A stretch of DNA of 64,000 nucleotides from Leucoraja ocellata (Eukaryota): NCBI GenBank assembly GCA_036785375.1, contig JAWMAR010000377.1, forward strand, positions 1,550,001 through 1,614,000, written 5' to 3'. The first letter of the stretch is position 1. Every line of letters starts with the position of its first letter. Both the position numbers and the translations under genes were made by a program. This document shows positions 4,853-48,807 of this stretch, piece by piece. The notes below the pieces were generated by a model, which did not search any database, was not told the origin of the DNA, and worked only from the letters and a program-made list of their open reading frames with translations.

Positions 4853-5508
4853 GCCTGGTCCTCTGAAAGTAAGCATGCAGGTACAGCAGGCAGTGAAGAA
4901 AGCTAATGGCATGTTGGCCTTCATTGCGAGAGGATTTGAGTTTAGAAGTAAGAAGGTCCTACTGCAGTTGTACTGGGCACTTGGAGTATTATGTGCAGTT
5001 TTGGTCTCCTAATTTGAGGAAATTATTGCTATTGAGGGAGCGCAGCGTAGGTTCACCAGGTTAATTCCCAGGATGGGAGGACTGACATATGATGAAAGAA
5101 TGGGTCGACTGGCCTTGTATTCACTGGAATTTAGAAGGATGAGAGGGTATCTTATAGAAACATATAAAATTCTTAAAGGATTGGCAAAATGTTCCCGAAG
5201 TCGGGGGAGTCGAGAACCAGGGGCCACAGTTTAAGAAAAGGTAGGCCATTTAGGACTGAGATGACGAAAAACTTTTTCACTCAGAGAGTTGTGAATCTGT
5301 GGAATTCTCTGCCACAGAAGGCAGTGGAGGCCAATTCACTGGATGTTTTCACGAGAGAGTTAGATTTAACTCTTAGGGCTAAAGGAATCAAGGAATATGG
5401 GGAAAAAGCAGGAACGGGGTACTGATTTTAGATGATCAGCCATGATCATATTGAATGGCGGAGCTGGTTTGAAGGGTCATTTTCTATTTTCTATGTTTCC
5501 ATGTTTCT
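4853..5508 (+). mobile_element. CR1 LINE 3' end
   Basis: ORF 5189 'ESRTRGHSLR...FFTQRVVNLWNSLP'; (ttctatgt)n tail. Confidence 0.92.
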
Positions 5509-5695
5509 ATTACTCCAGCATTTTGTGTCTATTATGGTAAACCTATGTAGATGATTGACTTAATATGGCACAGAAAGCTACATGGATCACCATAGTGAGG
5601 ACTTTTCATTTTGAAATACATACATACAGCATATTTAGTAATTTAATTTCATCAGTGACAGACATCCAAAATCAATCATATATTATTACAGTTGG

Positions 5696-5822
5696 ACACA
5701 AGGAACTGCAGATGCTGGTTTACAAAAAAAAAGACAAAGTGCTGGTGTGACTCAGCAGTCAGGCAGCGTCACTGAGGAGCATAGATAGATGGTGTTTTGT
5801 GTCAGATCCCTTCTTAAGACTC
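5696..5822 (-). mobile_element. Penelope terminal-repeat copy
   Basis: aggaactgcagatgctgg...cccttcttaagac, flanked by acagttg direct repeats. Confidence 0.7.
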
Positions 5823-7424: not shown

Positions 7425-8790
7425 CTACAAGTGGCAGATGAGTTGAACAGGTACTTTGGATCTGTCTTCACTAAGGAGGACACAAACAATCTTCCTGATA
7501 TAGTAGTGGCCAGAGGATCTGGGGGGACGGAGGAACTGAAGGAAATCCACATTAGGCAGGAAACGGTGTTGGATAGACTGATGGGACTGAAGGCTGATAA
7601 ATCCCCAGGGCCTAATGGTCTGCATCACAGGGTACTTAATGAAGTGGCTCTAAAAATCGTGGATGCATTGGTGATAATTTTCCAATGTTCTATAGACTCA
7701 GGATCAGTTCCTGTGGAGTGGAGGGTAGCTAATGTTATCCCACTTTTTAAGAAAGGCAGGAGAGAAAACAAGGAATTATAGACCAGTTAGCCTGACATCG
7801 GTGGTGGGGAAGATGCTGGAGTCGATTATAAAATATGAGATAGCAGAACATTTGGATAGCAATAACAGGTTCGGTCCGAGTCAGCATGGATTTACAAAGG
7901 GGAAATCATGCTTGACTAATCTTCTGGAATTTTTTGAAGATGTAACTTGAAAAATGGGCAAGGGAGAGCCAGTGGATGTAGTGTACCTGGACTTTCAGAA
8001 AGCATTTGATAAGGTCCCACATAGGAGATTAGTGGGCAAAATTAGGGCACATGGTATTGGGGGTAACATGCTGACATGGATAGAGAAGTGGTTGGCAGAC
8101 AGGAAACAAAGAGTAGGGATTAACAGGTCCCTTTCAGAATGGCAGGCAGTGCCTACTGGGGTACCGCAAGGCTCGGTGCTGGGACCGCAGCTATTTACAA
8201 TATACATCAATGATTTGGATGAAGGGATTCAAAGCAATATTAGCAAATTTGCAGATGACACAAAGCTGGGTGGCAGTGTGAACTGTGAGGAGGATGCTAT
8301 GAGAATGCAGGGTGACCTGGACAGGTTGGGGGAGTGGGCAGATGCATGGCAGATGAAGTTTATTGCGGATAAATGTGAGGTTATCTACTTTGGTAGCAAA
8401 AACAGGAAGGCAGATTACAGTCTAAATGGCGTCAAGTTGGGAAAAGGGGAAGTACAACAGGATCTGGGGGTCCTTGTACATCAGTCTATGAAAGTAAGCA
8501 TGCAGGTACAGCAGGCAGTGAAGAAAGCAAATGGCATGTTGGCATTTATAACAAAATTAATCAAATATAGGAGCAACGAGGTCCTTCTGCAGTTGTACAG
8601 AGCCCTAGTGAGACCACACCTGGAGTATTGAGTGCAGTTTTGGTCCCCTAATTTGAGGAAGGACATTCTTGCTATTGAGGAAGTGCAGCGTACGTTTACA
8701 AGGTTAATTCCCGGGATGGCGGGACTGTCATATGCTGAGAGAATGGAGCAGCTAGGCTTGTACACTCTGGAGTTTATAAGGATGAGATGG
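7425..8790 (+). mobile_element. CR1 LINE ORF2 reverse-transcriptase region (frameshifted, with stops)
   Basis: ORFs 7431, 7732 and 7954 contain KSPGPxG, NYRPVSLTS, QHGF, LDFQKAFDKV, GVPQGSVLGP and FADD. Confidence 0.97.
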
Positions 8791-8958
8791 AACAGGTGAC
8801 ATTTTGGATCGAGACCCTTCTTCAGACTTAAGAAGGCTCGCTAGCCGAAACGTTACCCATTCCTTCTCTCTAGAGATGCTGCCTGTCCCGCTGAATTATT
8901 CCAGCATTTTGTGTCTGTCTTTGGTTTAAACCAGCATCTGCAATTCCTTCCCACACAT
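8790..8958. mobile_element. Inverted (head-to-head) Penelope terminal repeats with two degenerate hammerhead cores
   Basis: Minus-strand core at 8796-8827 abuts a plus-strand core at 8827-8855 (cttaaga-a-ggct-cgct-agcc-gaaacgtta). Confidence 0.8.
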
Positions 8959-9865: not shown

Positions 9866-10384
9866 CCAAAGGGTGATCTGATAACCACATTTAGCTTGGC
9901 CTCCTGCAGAGCCCTCACGATCAAGTATTTGTATGTTAAATGTGTTAGAATATTCCTTCCACTTGGTGGCAAATGCAGAGAACATTTTAGATAATAGTTT
10001 GTTGAGCTTGGAGTGAGAATTGCAAAAAGGGGATTTAAATGAAGTAATGAAACCCTGGGTGGGGATTCATTGCAGATGGGGGGTCAAGATTTGGAGCTTC
10101 GGGGATAAAATGGAGTGGATCGGGAAGGGACCACATGAAGATAAAATAATCCCATCAGGCAGACATTTTAATGGGAAGGCGGGGAGCCTAAGGACAGTGG
10201 AGAGAGGATATGATGTCCAAAAGAAAAAAGTTCCAGGAACCCCATTTTCAGGATGAAGATCTAGTCTCCAGAAAGCCTCAGCATTTTAACTAATGCCGAG
10301 CAGATCTCATTTACATATTAGAATTTTGTGGAAGTAATATCAAAATTATATGACAATCGATACAGCTATCTATAGTTTAATCTC

Positions 10385-10635
10385 TGGCCTTTGTGTTCCA
10401 ACCATCTGCCTATCATAAACCTCCCTCCTGTGTCCACCTATTACTGCTATGCTTTGTCCCATGTCTCGTTTCTGTCGGCTTTCTCCTACCTCCCCCTGCA
10501 ATCAGTCTGAAGAAGGGTCCCGACCCAAACTATCACCTCTCCACGTTCTCCAGAGATGCTGCCTGACCCATTGAGTTACTCTACCACTTGGTGTCCTTTT
10601 GCACATACCAGCATCTGCAGTTCCTTGTTTCTACT
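10385..10635 (+). mobile_element. Penelope 3' UTR plus terminal repeat
   Basis: Pyrimidine-rich UTR then atcagtctgaagaagggtcccgacccaaac...ccagcatctgcagttcc. Confidence 0.8.
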
Positions 10636-12315: not shown

Positions 12316-12502
12316 AAAAAGAACCGCAGATGCTGGTTTAAATTGAAGGTAGTCACAAAATGCTGGAGTAACTCAACGGGACAAGCAGCATCTCTGGAGA
12401 GAAGGAATGGGTGACATTTCAGATCCGAAAGGTCATCCATTCCTTCTCTCCAGAGATGTTGCCTGTCCCGCTATGTTACTCCAGCATTTTGCGTCTACCC
12501 AA
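12316..12502. mobile_element. Fold-back Penelope terminal-repeat insertion, 10-bp TSD
   Basis: Inverted arms meet at ~12420; TSD agtattgtgt at 12306-12315 and 12503-12512. Confidence 0.85.
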
Positions 12503-13133: not shown

Positions 13134-13211
13134 TTAGATATAGCTCTTGGGGCTAACGGAATCAAGGGATATGGGGGAAAAAGCAGGAACAGGGGGGGTA
13201 TTGATTTTAGA

Positions 13212-13300
13212 CTCAAAATGCTGGAGAAACTCTGCGGGTGAGGCAGCATCTATGGAGAGAAGGAATGGGTGACGTTTCGGGTCGAGACCCTTCTTCAGAC
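13212..13300 (-). mobile_element. Penelope terminal-repeat insertion, 10-bp TSD
   Basis: TSD tgattttaga at 13202-13211 and 13301-13310. Confidence 0.85.
13269..13300 (-). ncRNA. Minimal type-I hammerhead ribozyme motif (intact core)
   Basis: Minus strand reads gu CUGAAGA A GGGU-CUCG-ACCC GAAA CG UC ac. Confidence 0.75.
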
Positions 13301-13521
13301 TGATTTTAGATTATCAACCATAATCATATTGAATGGCGGTGCTGGCTCGAAGGGCCGAATGGCCTACTCCTGCACCTATTTTTCATGTTTCTATGTTTGT
13401 TCACCTCTTTTAACACCAGGCCTTCATGTGTGCTTTGGTTGGATCCTGGGTATGTCACTCAATCACAAGAGTAAACCCCTGTGAGTTAGTTGATCGTGAA
13501 GTGTGGAGTGAGTTGGGTTAA

Positions 13522-13740
13522 AGATCTTATTGAAACATACAATTCTTCAGCGATTGGACAGCCTAGCTGCAGGAAAAATGTTCCCGATGTTGGGGAAGTC
13601 CAGAACCAGCGGTCACAGTATCCCCCCAAAGGGATATGGGGGGAAAAGCAGGAACGGTGTACTGATTCTTCATGAGCAGCCATGATCATATTGAATGGCT
13701 TACTCCTGCACCTGTTTTCTATGTTTCTATGTTTCTATGT
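13522..13740 (+). mobile_element. Deleted CR1 3' end
   Basis: gatcttattgaaacatac...(ttctatgt)n tail. Confidence 0.8.
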
Positions 13741-14070: not shown

Positions 14071-14283
14071 GATAGACACAAAATGCAGGAGTAACTCAGC
14101 GGATCAGGCAGCATGTCTGGAGAAAATGAATAGATAATGTTTCAGGTCAAGAAACTTTTTCAGTCTGAAAACCGTAATATCACCTACTCCTTTTGTCCAG
14201 AGATCCTGCCTGTCCCGCTGAGTTATTCCAGCATTTTGTGTCCATCTTCGGTGTAAACCAGCATCTGCATTCCTTCCTACACA
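14071..14283. mobile_element. Fold-back Penelope terminal-repeat insertion, 13-bp TSD
   Basis: Inverted arms; TSD tgttcggacccag (14058-14070) / tgttcagacccag (14284-14296). Confidence 0.85.
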
Positions 14284-14542
14284 TGTTCAGACCCAGCACT
14301 TTGTGCCACCCACTCAATGTATTCTGAAGCCAAATTCCTAATGAGAATTTTCAATGACGATACTAACAAACAGATCTCTAGGTTTTTTTAAATCGCCCTC
14401 AAATAAAAACATTCTGGGCAACATCCATTAATGGATGCATCTGCCTTAAAATGGCATCCCTGAAATATCAGTGTATGCATATTTTTTTGTGCACCCAGTT
14501 GCTTCTGTCACAAGGAGTCTACATTGATTATTGCTTACAGCC

Positions 14543-14700: not shown

Positions 14701-15059
14701 AAACTGAAACTGCTTAACAGGCCTGCTGAGCTTCCAAGGCTGCCTGGTTCACGCCTCCGTGGGCAGCAATGATTCACCCTATACCCCACGAGAATACAAA
14801 TTAAACCATTTTCTCCCAATCCTCCACTTGAAGATCAGCAGATCAGCAGAAACCCCAGAGAAATAGGTTTTGTGGCCATTTTTAGCCATTTTTCTGAGGT
14901 TTCATGTATCTCCATTATCATGTAATCCCACTTGATTGTGGATGATCAGCCATGATCACAATGAATGGCGGTGCTGGCTTGAAGGGCCGAATGGCCTACT
15001 CATGCACCTATTGTCTAATGTCTAATGTCTGATCGTAGTCTCTCAGTCAGTGCATCCAC

Positions 15060-15850
15060 TTTAACCCAATTCACTCCACACTTCACGATCAACTAACTCA
15101 CAGGGGTTTACTCTTGTGACTGGGTGACATACCCAGGATCCAACCAAAGCACACATGAAGGGGTAGTGATAAAAGAGGTGAACAAACATAGAAATATAGA
15201 AAGTAGATGCAGGAGTAGGCCATTTGGCCCTTCGAGCCTGTACCGCCATTTAATATGATCATGGCTGATCATCTAAAATCAGTCTGAAGAAGTCTGAAGA
15301 AGGGTCTCGACCCAAAACGTCACCCATTCCTTCTCTCCATAGATGCTGCCTCATCCGCTGAGTTTCTCCAGCACTTTGTATCTGTCTAAAATCACTACCC
15401 TGTCCCTGCTTTTTCCCCATATTCCTTGATTCCGTTAGCCCCAAGAGTTATATTTAACTCTTTTGATAACATCCAGTGAATTGGCGTCCACTGCCTTCTG
15501 TGGCAGAAAATTCTACAGAATCACAACTCTCTGGGTGAAAAGGTTTTTTCCTCATCTCAGTCCTAAATGGCCTACCTCTTATTCTTAAACTGTGATACCT
15601 GGTTCTGGACTCCCCCAACATTGGGAACATTTTTCGTGCACTCTAGCCTGTCAAATCCATTAAGAATGGTATATGTTTCCATAAGATACCCTTTCATCCT
15701 TCTAAATTCCCGTAAATACAAGCCCAGTCAATCCATTCTTTCATCATATGTCAGTCCCGCCATCCCGGGAATTAACCTGGTGAATCTACGCTGCACCCTC
15801 AATAGCAAGAATGTCCTTCCTCAAATTAGGCAACCAAAACTGCACACAAT
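15060..15850 (-). repeat. Inverted duplicate of 12502-13522 (CR1 3' end, nested Penelope repeat and unique flank)
   Basis: The unique ~125 bp at 13397-13522 is present reverse-complemented at 15060-15187, with the same nested insertion. Confidence 0.88.
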
Positions 15851-16184: not shown

Positions 16185-17270
16185 ATTATAACCATATAAC
16201 CATATAACCATATAACAATTACAGCACGGAAACAGGCCATCTCGGCCCTACAAGTCCATGCCGAACAAATTTTTTTCCCCTTAGTCCCACCTGCCTGCAC
16301 TCGTACCATAACCCTCCATTCCCTTCTCATCCATATTCCTATCCAATTTATTTTTAAATGATACCAATGAACCTGCCTCCACCACTTCCACTGGGAGCTC
16401 ATTCCACACCGCCACCACTCTCTGCGTAAAGAAGTTCCCCCTCATATTACCCCTAAACTTCTGTCCCTTAATTCTGAAGTCATGTCCTCTTGTTTGAATC
16501 TTCCCTATTCTCAAAGGGAAAAGCTTGTCCACATCAACTCGGTCTATCCCTCTCATCATTTTAAAGACCTCTATCAGGTCCCCCCTTAACCTTCTGCGCT
16601 CCAGAGAATAAAGACCTATAGAAGATTAGTCAAACATGACCTTCCAGGCACAAATCCATGTTGACTGTTCCTAATCAGACCCTGTTTATCTAGATGCTCA
16701 TATATATTGTCTCTAAGTATCTTTTCCATTAATTTGCCCACCACTGAAGTCAAACTAACAGGTCTATAATTGCTAGGTTTACTCTTAGAACCCTTTTTAA
16801 ACAATGGAACAACATGCGCAGTACGCCAATCCTCGGGGACTATTCCCGTTTCTAATGACATTTGAAATATTTCTGTCATAGCCCCGGCTATTTCTACACT
16901 AACTTCCCTCAATGTCCTAGGGAATATCCTGTCAGGACCTGGAGACTTATCCACTTTTATATTTTTCAAAAGTGTCAGTACTTCTTTTACTTTGAACCTC
17001 ATAGTATCCATAGCTACTCTACTAGTTTCCCTTACCTCACATAATTCCATATCCTTCTCCTTGGTGAATACCGAAGAAAAAAAATTGTTCAATATCTCCC
17101 CCATCTCTTTTGGCTCTGCAGATAGCTGTCCACTCTGTCTCTCCAATGGACCAATTTTATCCCTCCTTATCCTTTTGCTATTAATATAGCTGTAGAAACT
17201 CTTTGGATTGACTTTCACCTTACTTGCCAAAGCAACCTCATATCTTCTTTTAGCTTTTCTAATTTCTTTT
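16185..17270 (-). mobile_element. Young CR1 with internal deletion of the RT core
   Basis: ORF 16616-17230 ends at 'SCLTNLL' and joins directly to the GLYSLERRRL region and ORF 16281; (tatatggt)n tail. Confidence 0.92.
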
Positions 17271-17639: not shown

Positions 17640-17970
17640 AAAATAAATCTGCAGCTGCAGAAAATCTGAAATAAAAATAGTAAATGCTGAAACCATTTAG
17701 CATGCCAGCTAGCATCTGTAGAATGAGAAACGGTTAACATTTTGGTCCCTGGAACCTTCATTCACCAATACATTGACAAAGGTTTCTGCTAAAGGGCCTC
17801 AGACCTGAAATGTTAATGGTTTATTTTTCGACAGAGGCTGACTGACCTGCTGAGTGATTTCAGTACAGGAAGTCGGGACCCTTCTTCAGGCTCGACCCGA
17901 AACGTCACTCATTTCTTCTCTCCAGAGATGCTGCCTGTCCCGCTGAGTTACTCCAGCATTTTGTCTATCT
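17640..17970. mobile_element. Old inverted Penelope repeats plus a younger fold-back copy (17870-17970)
   Basis: Degenerate cores at ~17733-17763 (-) and ~17786-17816 (+); ctcgacccgaaacgtcac at 17891. Confidence 0.65.
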
Positions 17971-18039
17971 CAATTTAAACCAACTCCTTTAAACCAACTT
18001 CATCCAGTCACCTGATCACATAGGCATTTCCAAAATTAT

Positions 18040-18210: not shown

Positions 18211-18465
18211 AAAATTATTTGTTATTCTCAAGTTTGTAAAATACAAATATATTTTGAGAATCACTTTGATTTTAGTAGACATGTTATGTAAATGTGCTTG
18301 ATGGAATGATCATTTAGAGAGAAACATTATTAGAAAAACTGAGCCCTCCTCAGCAAATTCTAAGTAATATAAAAATCTGAAAATAAAATTTGGTTTAAAT
18401 AAAGCAGCAACTTGATACTTCTTTGCACTAAAAAGGCAGAAAGACAGGAATACCAAGAGAGGAAT

Positions 18466-18495
18466 CTGAAGAAGGGTTTCGGCCCGAAACGTTGC
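18466..18495 (+). ncRNA. Minimal hammerhead ribozyme motif (intact core)
   Basis: CUGAAGA A GGGU-UUCG-GCCC GAAA CG UU gc. Confidence 0.75.
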
Positions 18496-18559
18496 CTATT
18501 TCCTTCGCTCCATAGATGCTGCTGCACCCGCTGAGTTTCTCCAGCTTTTCTGTGTAACC
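18466..18559 (+). mobile_element. 94-bp Penelope terminal-repeat insertion starting at the hammerhead core, 7-bp TSD
   Basis: TSD gaggaat at 18459-18465 and 18560-18566; near-identical to the end of the Penelope at 57515-57606. Confidence 0.9.
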
Positions 18560-18913
18560 GAGGAATTTGCATGTTTACTTATGCAGCTGCGATATTTAGT
18601 AACAAAGTGAAAAATGTTAATTTCTAGGAACCGATTACAAAATAATCAATTTTCAAAGTTAGCAGAATCCATCTAGAAATGTCCAAGCTAATGCAGTAAA
18701 AACTCAGGCATTGCCAGTACTGCAAGACCCAGCCATTCTCACTCTCTCTGATGCCAGACTCCACAACTCAACCAGTAGATTGAAATGCAGAATTATAGAA
18801 CCACGAACAAAGTCCAGAAACTACCACCTGTATTTCATTATCTCCACCTTCTCCACCTTCTTCCCCTTCTCCCCCCCCCCCCTTTCTATTTTTAATTTAA
18901 GGTTCCAACATCT

Positions 18914-23072: not shown

Positions 23073-23094
23073 TTGAGTTTGTGTAATGTTTTGT

Positions 23095-23277
23095 TTAAGA
23101 AAGAACTGCTGGTGCACATCAAAGATAAGTACAAAATGCTGGAGTAACTCAGTGGGGTCAGGCAGCATCTCTGGAGAATAGGATCAGGTAACATTTATCA
23201 CCAAAACACCACTTATTCCTTTTCTCCAGTGATGCTGCCTGAACTGCTGAGTTACTCCAGCATTATGTTTATCTTTA
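23095..23277. mobile_element. Fold-back Penelope terminal repeats
   Basis: aatgctggagtaactcag...ggcagcatc / gatgctgcc...ctgagttactccagcatt. Confidence 0.8.
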
Positions 23278-30969: not shown

Positions 30970-31446
30970 AGGGCCTGTCCCACGAGCATGCGACCTGCAT
31001 GCGGCAAGTGTGACCAAACCGGAAGCGGGGGCCACACGGAGGTCGACTGATCCCCGTACAGGGCCGGTCCCACCAGCATGCACCTGCATGCGGCGAACGC
31101 GACCAAACCAGAAGTGGGGGCCACGCGGAAGTCGAGTGAGTGGCGTGAAGTTCGAGCGAAGTCCGCGGGAAGTTCGCACGTGACGTACGGCATCAAGACG
31201 CTGCGTATGCCCGTCGAGGCGGTGGGTACTGTGTAGAGGCGGCTGCGGACCGGCAGGCCGTTGCCGCATGGAATGTTTGAACACGGTCAGTTTTTCGGAG
31301 CCCCGCGCGATGTTGGGACCAGTTCCGCACATCTCCATACGGCTCCGGCGATCGAAGTCGGACCAGCCCCGCGAGGCCGTACGGCTCAAGAGACCACGTT
31401 AGGTCGTGCTTGCCACATGGAGTCGCATGCTCGTGGGACAGGCCAT
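30970..31446. mobile_element. PIF/Harbinger-type MITE with duplicated left end
   Basis: ~24-bp TIR AGGGCCTGTCCCACGAGCATGCGAC, TAA TSD; a second left-end copy begins at 31060. Confidence 0.88.
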
Positions 31447-40124: not shown

Positions 40125-40602
40125 GTTCTGGAGTAACTCAGCGGGACAGGCAGCATATCTGGGGGGAACCTTTTTCAGACTAATTGTGGTGATGGGGAGG
40201 GGGCGGGGGTTGAAAGCTGGAAGAGAAGTGGGGGCAGGACAATGCCTGGTCAGTGAGAGGTGGATGCAGGTGAGTGGGAAAGGAGTTTGTTTGGCTGATG
40301 CTTGGGCAAAGGCCAGAAATGAGAAGACAAAAGAATGAAAGAGATGCAAATTGTGAAACCAGAGGAAGGAATGTAGGTGGACGCAGACGGGAGAAATGAT
40401 TGTGATTTCAGGTGGGGCGCTGGGAAGAGTGGGGGGGGGGGGGAAGAAAGGGGATAAGAGTGTGTTATTTGTAGGTTAGTTACCTAATATTAGAGAATTC
40501 AATGTACATAACCATTAGGTTGTAAGCTATCTAAACGGAATAAGAGAAGCTGTTCCTCCAGTTTGTGTGCGGCCTCACTCTGACAATGGAAGCGGCCCAG
40601 GG
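40125..40602 (-). mobile_element. Penelope 3' end (endonuclease C-terminus, UTR, terminal repeat)
   Basis: aaacggaataagagaagctgttcctccagtttg parallels 57735-57770. Confidence 0.8.
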
Positions 40603-40824
40603 CCTTTACTACTCAGGGACTGGCATTCATGCTCCTGTTGTAATCATGCTTCCTCTTCTGTGGCAACCTCAAGCCATGCCTTCTTTGTCCCATTGGCAGA
40701 TATCCTCCCTGCCACTAGGGAATATAGCGCCCCTTGGCTGCAGCTGTACGAATCGTGGCTTAATCTGAGAAGTCACTGAATGTAAGAGCTACTTTGTGGC
40801 ATTTGTAATCTAGTCCCCCACTCC

Positions 40825-40936
40825 AATAGGCAACGTTTCGGGCCGAAACCCTTCTTCAGACCCTGCTGCACCTGCTGAGTTTCTCCAGCATTTTTGTGTA
40901 CCTTCGATTTTCCAGCATCTGCAGTTCCTTCTTAAA
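40825..40936. mobile_element. Inverted Penelope terminal repeats with an intact minus-strand hammerhead core (40832-40859)
   Basis: aacgtttcgggccgaaacccttcttcag followed by a plus-strand terminal segment. Confidence 0.82.
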
Positions 40937-41117
40937 CAACGCACAAACCTTTATGTCTTTGGAGTGTGGGAGGAAACCGAGGATCTCAGAGAAAACACGT
41001 GCAGTCACGGGAAGAATTTACAAACTCCGCACAGACATGCACGCGTGGTCAGGAATTAAACCCAGGTCTCTGGCGCTGTAAGGCAGTAACTCAACCGCTA
41101 CACCACCATACTGCCCG
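40937..41117 (-). mobile_element. V-SINE 5' part
   Basis: tctttggagtgtgggaggaaacc...ctggcgctgtaaggcag. Confidence 0.82.
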
Positions 41118-44017: not shown

Positions 44018-44452
44018 ATTATGAATAAGTTAGGACTTTATTCTTTGGAGCGCAGAAGGTTAAGGGGGGACTTGATAGAGGTTTTTAAAATGATGAGAGG
44101 GATAGACAGAGTTGACGTGGAAAAGCTTTTCCCACTGAGAGTAGGGAAGATTCAAACAAGGGGACATGACTTGAGAATTAAGGGACTGAAGTTTAGGGGT
44201 AACATGAGGGGGAACTTCTTTACTCAGAGAGTGGTAGCTGCGTGGAATGAGCTTCCAGTGAACATGGTGGAGGCAGGTTCGTTTTTATCATTTAAAAATA
44301 AATTGGATAGTTATATGGATGGGAAGGGAATGGAGGGTTATGGTCTGAGCGCAGGTATATGGGACTAGGGGAGATTATGTGTTCGGCACGGACTAGAAGG
44401 GTCGAGATGGCCTGTTTCCGTGCTGTAATTGTTATATGGTTATATGGTTATA
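44018..44452 (+). mobile_element. Young CR1 3' end
   Basis: ORF 44021 is an intact C-terminus; (tatatggt)n tail. Confidence 0.95.
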
Positions 44453-44814
44453 AAGATAAGAACATGTTTCAAACACAAGTAATATTTTCTTATTCCAGTA
44501 GCAAACACATTAAGGATTAAATGAAAATAATAAATACTTTAACTTTGTGAATATCTCATTGCAGATTAATGAACTGAACTAGAACTGGGACTGTGTAAGT
44601 AGTGTGGGAACAGCGGAACAAGAAAGGAAGCTATTGAGTTGACAGAATTCTAGATTAATTCCTTGGTAGAATAGTTAACAATTTATACAGAATTTATACA
44701 GCACTGCGCTTTAAAAAAAAAATCCCGAATGACCTTTGACAAATCCCATGATTCCTCGCGTTTATCGAGATACTGAACTCGCTTAATACAGCCCCATATC
44801 ATGAAACTATGTTG

Positions 44815-45015
44815 AAACAAAGAACTGCAAATGCTGGTTTGTACCAAAGATAGACATAAAGTGCTGGGGTAACTCAACGGGTCAGACAGTACCTCTGGAG
44901 GAAAAGGATGGGTGACGTTTCTGGTCCAACCTGAATAAGAGTCCCAACCTGAAACATCATCCATCCTATTTCTTCAGGAATGCTGCCTGACCCGTTGAGT
45001 TACTCCAGCACTTTT
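44815..45015. mobile_element. Fold-back Penelope terminal repeats
   Basis: Inverted arms join within the hammerhead region at 44911-44960. Confidence 0.8.
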
Positions 45016-45254
45016 TTTCTTCTTTATCATGAGAGGTTGTTCCCTGCTCTATGACCCCCTGCCAGCAGGACAATCTCTCAGCATTTCCCAATTCAGTTTC
45101 CCTCAGATTCTTATGATTCAATGAGATCATCTCTCATTCATTTAAACCTAAATCACATGATTGATGCAAAGATGCTTTGAAAGAGCAGAACGGTTCAATT
45201 GAATTTCTGGAGAGGCCACACAGGAAATAAACAGTTTTCAGAAGTACAACACTG

Positions 45255-48479: not shown

Positions 48480-48618
48480 AGATAGACACAAAATGCTGTA
48501 GTAACTCAGTGGGACAGGCAGCATCTCTCCAGAGATGCTGCCTGTCCCACTGAGTTACTCCAACATTTTGTGTCCATATTCGGTTTAAACCAGCATCTGC
48601 AGTACTTTCCTACATACT
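48480..48618. mobile_element. Fold-back Penelope terminal repeat (~44-bp stem, 2-nt loop), 14-bp TSD
   Basis: ...gcagcatctct-cc-agagatgctgc...; TSD atctgtttccctgt / atctatttccctgt. Confidence 0.9.
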
Positions 48619-48682
48619 ATCTATTTCCCTGTCCTGCCAATCTTATTGGTCACCTCCTCAAATATATTAATTAAATTTGTGA

Positions 48683-48807
48683 TAGAAGGAACTGCAGATG
48701 CTGGTTTAAACCAAAGATAGACATAAAAAGCTGGAGTAATTCAGTGGGACAGGCAGCATCTTTGGAGAGAAGGAATGGATGACATTTCGGTTCGAAACCC
48801 CTTCTTC
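48683..48807 (-). mobile_element. Penelope terminal-repeat insertion, 10-bp TSD
   Basis: TSD aaatttgtga at 48673-48682 and 48808-48817. Confidence 0.88.

Follow-up and report, generated by a model that had tools for sequence, protein, structure and literature searches.

Why should short, independently inserted copies of a Penelope-derived unit begin within a few nucleotides of one point, the core of a hammerhead motif? The question was raised by a first-pass annotation of a 64-kb stretch of the Leucoraja ocellata genome (contig JAWMAR010000377.1, positions 1,550,001 to 1,614,000; hereafter the window), which described ribozyme-only mini-insertions with a clustered 5' boundary and suggested that either a discrete retrozyme-like unit is mobilised by Penelope or reverse transcription terminates at the ribozyme fold. 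The sharp 5' boundary is a real and non-random feature of a known class of elements. Offsets are counted throughout from the C of CTGAAGA, which is taken as 0.

Short inserts and their boundaries

The insert at 18466-18559 on the plus strand is 94 bp long and lies between two copies of GAGGAAT (Table 1). It had been said to begin exactly at the C of the core and to carry a perfect 7-bp TSD, and this is what we found, with the start at 0 or -1, as the last T of the TSD equals element base -1. An exact 7-bp repeat is expected by chance with a probability of 0.005 when 3 nt of slack are allowed at both ends, and a 10-bp repeat with a probability of 0.00015. The inserts at 13212-13300 and 48683-48807, for which 10-bp TSDs had been given, were confirmed as well. 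In the case of the former, an empty CR1-type copy at 5395-5450 carries the target site once. The same insert recurs at about 15283-15385 (15294) through a local inverted duplication and was counted once. The duplicated segments (13134-13523 and 15059-15457, 88% identical) consist of a CR1-type piece carrying the Penelope insert, and the second arm shows a 10-base tandem duplication at the hammerhead start.

Four further copies, at about 4781, 5822, 6098 and 52410, had been listed as independent inserts with the same boundary. All start close to the core; those at about 4781 and 6098 have no clear TSD, the TSD of the copy at about 5822 is degenerate, and the copy at about 52410 adjoins an internal Penelope RT-coding fragment (52418-52758, detected by tblastn), which is its 5' neighbour in place of host DNA. 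The last copy was for this reason rejected as a UTR-bearing one, and the fusion could be due to a template jump at the RNA 5' end or to a deletion. A homology test of 17 upstream regions returned one pair with related UTRs, and blast comparison of the upstream regions gave no matches.

The short unit has two 3' ends, near +94 or at +125..+135, within a wider spread of ends over +87..+135. An optional tail of 30-40 nt, a TSD and an inverted 5'-truncated partner are all seen among window copies. The description of the inserts as ribozyme-only is wrong, since the motif occupies about -2..+29 of a 94-135-nt unit and two thirds of the unit lie downstream of the ribozyme. The short copies look like dead repeats, with no sign of a host function.

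Table 1. Positions of the short inserts, head-to-head pairs and related copies in the window (offsets relative to the C of CTGAAGA)
Feature	Position	Strand	Remarks
Left TSD	18459..18465	+	GAGGAAT; last T may also be element base -1
Short insert 0..+93, tail absent	18466..18559	+	2 differences in 95 from long copy
Right TSD	18560..18566	+	GAGGAAT
Minimal type I hammerhead motif	18466..18493	+	CUGAAGA, helix II 18474-18485 with 4-nt loop, GAAA, palindromic ACGU; predicted cut after 18493
Short insert in CR1-type piece	13212..13300	-	start -2, microhomology to -5, 10-bp TSD
Short insert with tail	48683..48807	-	start +2/+1, 10-bp TSD
Short insert with tail	5694..5822	-	start -3 plus one extra G, degenerate TSD
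Composite: RT-coding fragment and tailed short unit	52278..52758	-	unit start -3, no TSD found
Copy reading through core into UTR	10380..10632	+	UTR homologous to copy 40128-40603
Long 5'-truncated copy	57513..58520	-	RT C-terminus, CX4CxxC linker, GIY-YIG, pyrimidine-rich UTR, TCAGT, hammerhead core at 57606, 3' end +94
Head-to-head pair	12316..12502		10-bp TSD, junction in helix II, tail on minus arm only
Head-to-head pair	14071..14289		7-bp TSD, junction at TCAG-N-CTGA palindrome, tail on plus arm only
Head-to-head pair	23092..23275		8-bp TSD, junction near +16, tail on minus arm only
Head-to-head pair	44805..45024		8-bp TSD, plus arm from 0, minus arm near +11, tail on minus arm only
Head-to-head pair	48480..48623		9-bp TSD, junction at palindrome near +46, tail on plus arm only
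Head-to-head pair	8784..8955		joined at -1/0; no TSD found
Inverted 0..+17 piece and arm starting +13	17872..17985		no TSD found
Inverted -2..+35 piece and tailed arm from near +54	40825..40945		subfamily of the 18466 insert; no TSD found

Parent element

Judged by sequence, the short inserts are copied from the pLTR end (terminal module) of a Penelope-like element (PLE) that is endonuclease-positive (EN+). The window copy of its ORF, in the long copy at 57513-58520, comprises the 3' third only, and a full-length pLTR-ORF-pLTR copy is absent from the 64 kb. RT together with a C-terminal GIY-YIG domain is found in one ORF, the GIY-YIG match having an E value of 4.6e-4, just under the Pfam cut-off. 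Longer homologues of the ORF number 49, most of them annotated as RT (best E 4e-80), and the closest named vertebrate match is a bamboo shark protein. A C-x4-C-x2-C motif precedes GIY-YIG and agrees with the CX2-5CxxC linker, by which, under the definition of PMC8557442, the element is classed as Neptune or Nematis type, an assignment that follows the linker and not RT phylogeny. The hammerhead motif is located in the terminal repeat downstream of the ORF, an arrangement common to related loci. Several subfamilies include short copies, and the same subfamilies also have UTR-bearing ones. A degenerate motif of the unit gave 0 matches in viral, metagenome and prokaryote contigs.

The core stands at the front of the long ORF in five near-full-length invertebrate relatives, and repeat 3' ends fall at +81..+114 in all six loci tested. 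In the invertebrate loci, selected because they contain the ORF, starts range widely from -489 to -7, and given this scatter the 5' boundary may be lineage-specific. Two short invertebrate Penelope copies (L042:3142-3201 and L045:2097-2166) start at +26..+28, the predicted hammerhead cut site, unlike the window family.

Two other features of the window concern different repeats. A GC-rich 89-bp unit at 30970-31139, unrelated to the Penelope unit, is present in 1.9 tandem copies, and an assembly gap of 212 N (59992-60203) lies within a repeat matching 16195-16618 and 44022-44452.

Hammerhead motif

With the descriptor taken from PMC4209133, the elements CUGANGA, helix II, GAAA, palindromic 15.2-16.2 and NUH are all present. 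Predicted helix I has 2 bp in the three copies that keep -2 and 1 bp in the 18466 insert, where the norm of the type is 4-5 bp and the D. virilis variant has 2 bp. The motif is a putative minimal type I hammerhead, not a canonical one, and its self-cleavage is predicted only. Rfam at the gathering threshold gave no match in the window. Single-strand folding of isolated units produced no hammerhead in five of five, their stability relative to shuffled sequences ranging from z -0.4 to +1.3. The consensus fold suggests a putative stem of about +47..+54 with the tail, of weak energy (-2.7) and with no net covariation support, two-sided changes occurring in 2 of 15 pairs.

Helix II pairing is kept between subfamilies, with U-G and a UUCG loop at 18474-18485 and U-A and a CUCG loop at 13279-13290. 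Two old copies of a more divergent hammerhead family stand head to head at 17679-17863 (17760/17792), separated by a 31-base spacer. The ACGT of the motif was also considered as the Drosophila downstream promoter element RGACGTGY and rejected, as it matches 5 of 8 bases only and the ribozyme needs ACGT anyway.

Clustering of 5' ends

Altogether 38 pieces of the unit were recognised in the window, with starts assigned by eye. Boundaries were regarded as fixed in 24 of them, where the piece abuts a TSD, is paired with an inverted partner or adjoins Penelope sequence that could be identified. Of the 14 pieces left out, one is a duplicate and one lies at +70, while the other twelve have unfixed boundaries, half of them near the core and half downstream. 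Fixed starts fall at -5..+5 in 11 cases and at +6..+55 in 10, while three read into the UTR. This clustering differs from uniform starts with p=4e-4, or 0.01 if any 11-nt window is allowed. When only those fixed ends that reach the core are considered, 11 of 14 stop there, compared to 11% expected from the downstream rate (p=9e-9). Counted by event, 10 of 13 stop at the core, and p is still below 3e-4 when unfixed copies are added in three ways. The clustering at the hammerhead core proposed by the first-pass annotation is thus upheld, both by these counts and by a peak at -2/-3 in public reads (see below). It was also right that the boundary is not the predicted cleavage site, as the unit ends lie at -3..+2 and +87..+135, and not at +28.

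Head-to-head pairs

The window holds eight head-to-head pairs of units, which had been overlooked before. Five of these are bounded by TSDs of 7-10 bp; as the TSDs bound the pair, each represents a single insertion. The tail is found on exactly one arm in all five TSD-flanked pairs (chance 0.01-0.03), and none of the 16 arms in the eight pairs passes about -5. Four junctions are positioned on palindromes of the unit, two of them at CAG-N-CTG. The middle base of the latter is A in one junction and T in the other, and one arm is mutated to CTT. Such A/T middle bases would be expected if two cDNA ends reaching -3 had annealed around one mismatch. On the question of a single template, identity within pairs exceeds the mean between copies in five of five pairs, clearly so in only one.

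The boundary in public sequencing runs

One DNA run (contigs) and three RNA runs were aligned to 57490-58089 at 92% likeness. The results on loose ends refer to the best 24 of 1208 rows, counts for the DNA run are incomplete and given as minima, and the organisms of the runs may differ from that of the window (best word share 0.74). Loose ends at -2 were present in at least 107 DNA contigs, the largest 5'-side row among those listed; in the two bulk RNA runs they account for 480 and 223 reads, compared to 733 and 193 for ends at -3. At -2 the loose letters agree with each other to only 0.34-0.35, which indicates unrelated AT-rich flanks and not a shared exon. According to computation, the -2 peak cannot be produced by chance extension of starts at 0 or -1. 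Position +28, the predicted cut, is absent among the best 24 of the 1208 rows. The single-cell run shows rows at -5/-6 and none at -2/-3 among the rows listed. Rows at -5/-6 occur in all three RNA runs and mostly resemble the UTR of other subfamilies, as do some at -3.

Immediately within the boundary, depth exceeds that of the ORF by a factor of 4.5-21, and short units are covered 6- to 34-fold more deeply than ORF-bearing sequence. Because part of the depth step stems from other subfamilies with a different UTR, it overstates the peak. An RNA start peak at -3..-1 was not listed for the three RNA runs, where the table threshold is a fifth of local depth and reads through genomic copies probably dominate. 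The best 15 of 89 joints include no GT-AG joint ending at -1 within 480 nt upstream, and no end-to-start joint, although poly(A)-type libraries would lose circles.

At 57566-57602, many contigs and reads jump back by about 33 bases and so duplicate roughly +4..+37; two of the inverted short arms (8784-8826 and 40825-40860) likewise end at +35..+41. In run X21, reads of the ORF (57690-58089) show a several-fold strand bias that is absent from those of the short unit; ORF-bearing copies may be expressed, or orientation within introns may be under selection.

Origin of the boundary

With little more than even confidence, we infer that short inserts arise when RT initiates within an RNA, at about +94 or +135, and runs off its 5' terminus at -3/-2; this terminus would most likely be a transcription start and possibly a trimmed end. 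Such a run-off is supported by the 11 of 14 fixed ends that stop at the core, by the lack of any pair arm (0 of 16) passing about -5, and by the read peak at -2/-3. In the invertebrate relatives the core is at the front of the long ORF and the repeats end at +81..+114, so the same module should also stand at the front of the mRNA of the element. An enzyme binding this front copy, or an RNA from a solo pLTR, would then give a run-off product of fixed size. If both target strands prime, the two cDNAs would anneal at short palindromes and form the head-to-head pairs.

The RNA 5' end itself could be made by initiation at the Inr-like TCAGTCT, a possibility that we put forward tentatively. The Inr consensus is YYANWYY, and both TCAGTCT and TTAGTCT fit it, with A at -3. 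Against a transcription start, the clearest peak is at -2 and not at the A of the Inr at -3. An extra G derived from cap copying is a signature of LINEs; that only two copies in the window have an extra G, and that the loose-end consensus begins with another letter, speaks against a capped start. A more doubtful source of the end would be 5'-3' trimming up to a protein-protected fold, for which RNA folds that block exonucleases are a precedent. As to the D. virilis element, its pLTR holds a promoter and an Inr (PMC2377424), while the analogous position is a splice acceptor (PMC4209133), and this analogy would argue against a start site.

Work on an Anolis element (PMC11167929) describes an enzyme that nicks and extends both target strands, initiates internally at two adjacent sites bounding the tail, and makes products with a length that follows the 5' terminus of the template. 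Cleavage by the ribozyme, which is protein-assisted, is not needed there, and ribozyme mutants leave product size unchanged. The rule of one tailed arm in the window pairs connects both published initiation sites with the two strands of the target. In a further, rather doubtful extension, the hammerhead region would set the 5' terminus of the template without cutting: a protein-bound fold would mark or protect the RNA end at the helix I edge and yield a 90-135-nt mini-template, to be copied onto both strands of the target by a dimeric enzyme that uses two start sites.

The boundary could also be inherited, if a few short copies acted as SINE-like masters that are transcribed and mobilised in trans. 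The greater depth of short units agrees with such masters, as does the observation that rotifer pLTR sequences suffice for mobilisation in trans (PMC3846280), and internal initiation would probably remove the need for a defined RNA 3' end. On the other hand, the boundary recurs in several divergent subfamilies, so that every master would have to share one start position, and between the 18466 insert and the long copy only 2 of 95 bases differ. Inherited masters are unlikely in our opinion, and can coexist with the run-off explanation. Short and long copies, few as they are, share subfamilies. Termination of RT at the ribozyme fold, the second of the original proposals, would mean that RT stalls or hands over on a long template once it comes to the upstream edge of the hammerhead, to which protein is bound. 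Its position is well chosen, the commonest end (-2) being the outer base of the predicted 2-bp helix I, and the assistance of the Anolis ribozyme by protein (PMC11167929) also fits. The direction of copying does not: RT meets the fold from the 3' side, and the 3' strand of a helix I of only 2 bp is copied before RT reaches -2. As the isolated units did not adopt the hammerhead fold and were no stabler than shuffles, and Anolis product length tracks the template 5' end irrespective of ribozyme mutations, we consider such stalling distinctly unlikely. A boundary set in DNA, by a dimeric endonuclease cutting the quasi-palindrome TCAG-T-CTGA or by microhomology joining of longer cDNA, would account for the two head-to-head junctions on this palindrome and the two more on other palindromes, and palindromes are known at inverted PLE junctions (PMC3846280). 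Single inserts with TSDs and unrelated flanks are not easily accounted for in this way; furthermore, the palindrome is weakened in TTAGT variants (40185, 52406), one of which, 52406, still starts at -3, and we regard a DNA-level origin as improbable.

A pyrimidine tract, YAG and T at -1 resemble a 3' splice site, and spliced RNA or a splicing by-product might serve as the template. The UTR-bearing copies 57606, 10507 and 40185 retain YAG at -4..-2, and a D. virilis intron ends at helix I (PMC4209133). Splicing is nevertheless quite improbable here: a shared upstream exon is not seen, agreement being 0.34-0.39 in four of five listed rows at -2/-3 and 0.57 in the fifth, the TSDs abut the unit with 0-1 extra bases, and the suitable GT-AG joint is missing from the best 15 of the 89 joints. 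For the proposed discrete retrozyme-like unit mobilised by Penelope, the data agree that the unit is discrete, Penelope-derived and non-random in its start. The retrozyme part of the proposal, a self-cleaved circular unit copied by rolling circle, is very improbable. It can draw on the type I hammerhead motif and PLE kinship, both retrozyme traits, and on the reads with a duplication of about +4..+37. However, the tandem arrays that had been suggested as a check are missing, no head-to-tail array of the unit being present among 23 repeat rows of the 64-kb window; the unit ends are not the cut site, +28 is absent among the listed loose-end rows, the motif is minimal, and subfamilies are shared with UTR-bearing copies. 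We give equally little credence to an artefact or to selection, by which random truncation would appear sharp because UTR-bearing copies escape recognition (divergent UTR) or were purged for their splice signal. The UTR is of low complexity and differs between subfamilies, and the -5/-6 rows show this effect. Against it, ends are fixed by TSDs and an empty site, and if random truncation were followed by pure selection against the UTR, depth in the last bin should reach 0.21 of the plateau, compared to 0.47-0.82 seen in four of four runs.

Relation to known elements

Truncated copies, solo and inverted pLTRs, one-sided tails and palindromic junctions have been described for PLEs (PMC8557442, PMC3846280). 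The window family shares with EN+ PLEs of the Neptune/Nematis-type linker the RT with C-terminal GIY-YIG, the CX4CxxC linker and the pLTR hammerhead, and its copies share TSDs of 7-10 bp, an optional tail on one end and an adjacent inverted copy. It differs in that published accounts describe truncation as variable whereas ends in the window peak within a few bases, and in that inverted pairs of the short module alone form whole TSD-flanked insertions.

The Anolis Poseidon element PAc (PMC11167929) likewise has two adjacent 3' ends downstream of the hammerhead with the tail between them, AT-rich targets and no RNA ends at the cut site, and its priming on both strands would explain the head-to-head pairs of the window. 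PAc belongs to another PLE clade and has a start codon in its core, CUGAUGA, in contrast to CUGAAGA in the window; a genomic 5' peak is not reported in the main text of that paper. Metazoan non-LTR retrozymes, as described in PMC7229834 and bioRxiv 10.64898/2026.07.22.740005, are similarly non-coding, carry a type I hammerhead and are kin of PLE pLTRs, but the window unit lacks head-to-tail arrays, ends off the cut site and has a minimal, not canonical, ribozyme. The 5' region of D. virilis Penelope (PMC2377424, PMC4209133) resembles the window family with respect to the pLTR promoter, a helix I of 2 bp, and a pyrimidine tract and AG bordering helix I. There, however, transcription starts about 120 nt upstream of helix I, a 75-nt intron begins 46 nt after the start site and extends to helix I, and use of the edge as a splice acceptor is proven, while splicing was not seen among the joints listed for the window family.

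Our search of openly accessible literature found no sharp 5' boundary at a hammerhead edge, and PMC6431247 added nothing on such a boundary; the supplementary coverage plots of PMC11167929 could show a 5' peak. The role of the PLE hammerhead and the formation of the second end of an insertion are described as open questions in PMC11167929 and PMC8557442. A boundary that is sharp to the base across subfamilies, together with the junctions in public runs, makes the role of the ribozyme region and the joining step directly testable. The short copies would represent a genomic read-out of a poorly understood insertion mechanism, most likely through an RNA copied to its very end. If the template end is indeed set by the fold, this would give rise both to single inserts and to TSD-flanked palindromic inserts in which exactly one arm is tailed; the dead copies would preserve a record, at base resolution, of how the enzyme works, and would behave as a self-generated SINE-like class.
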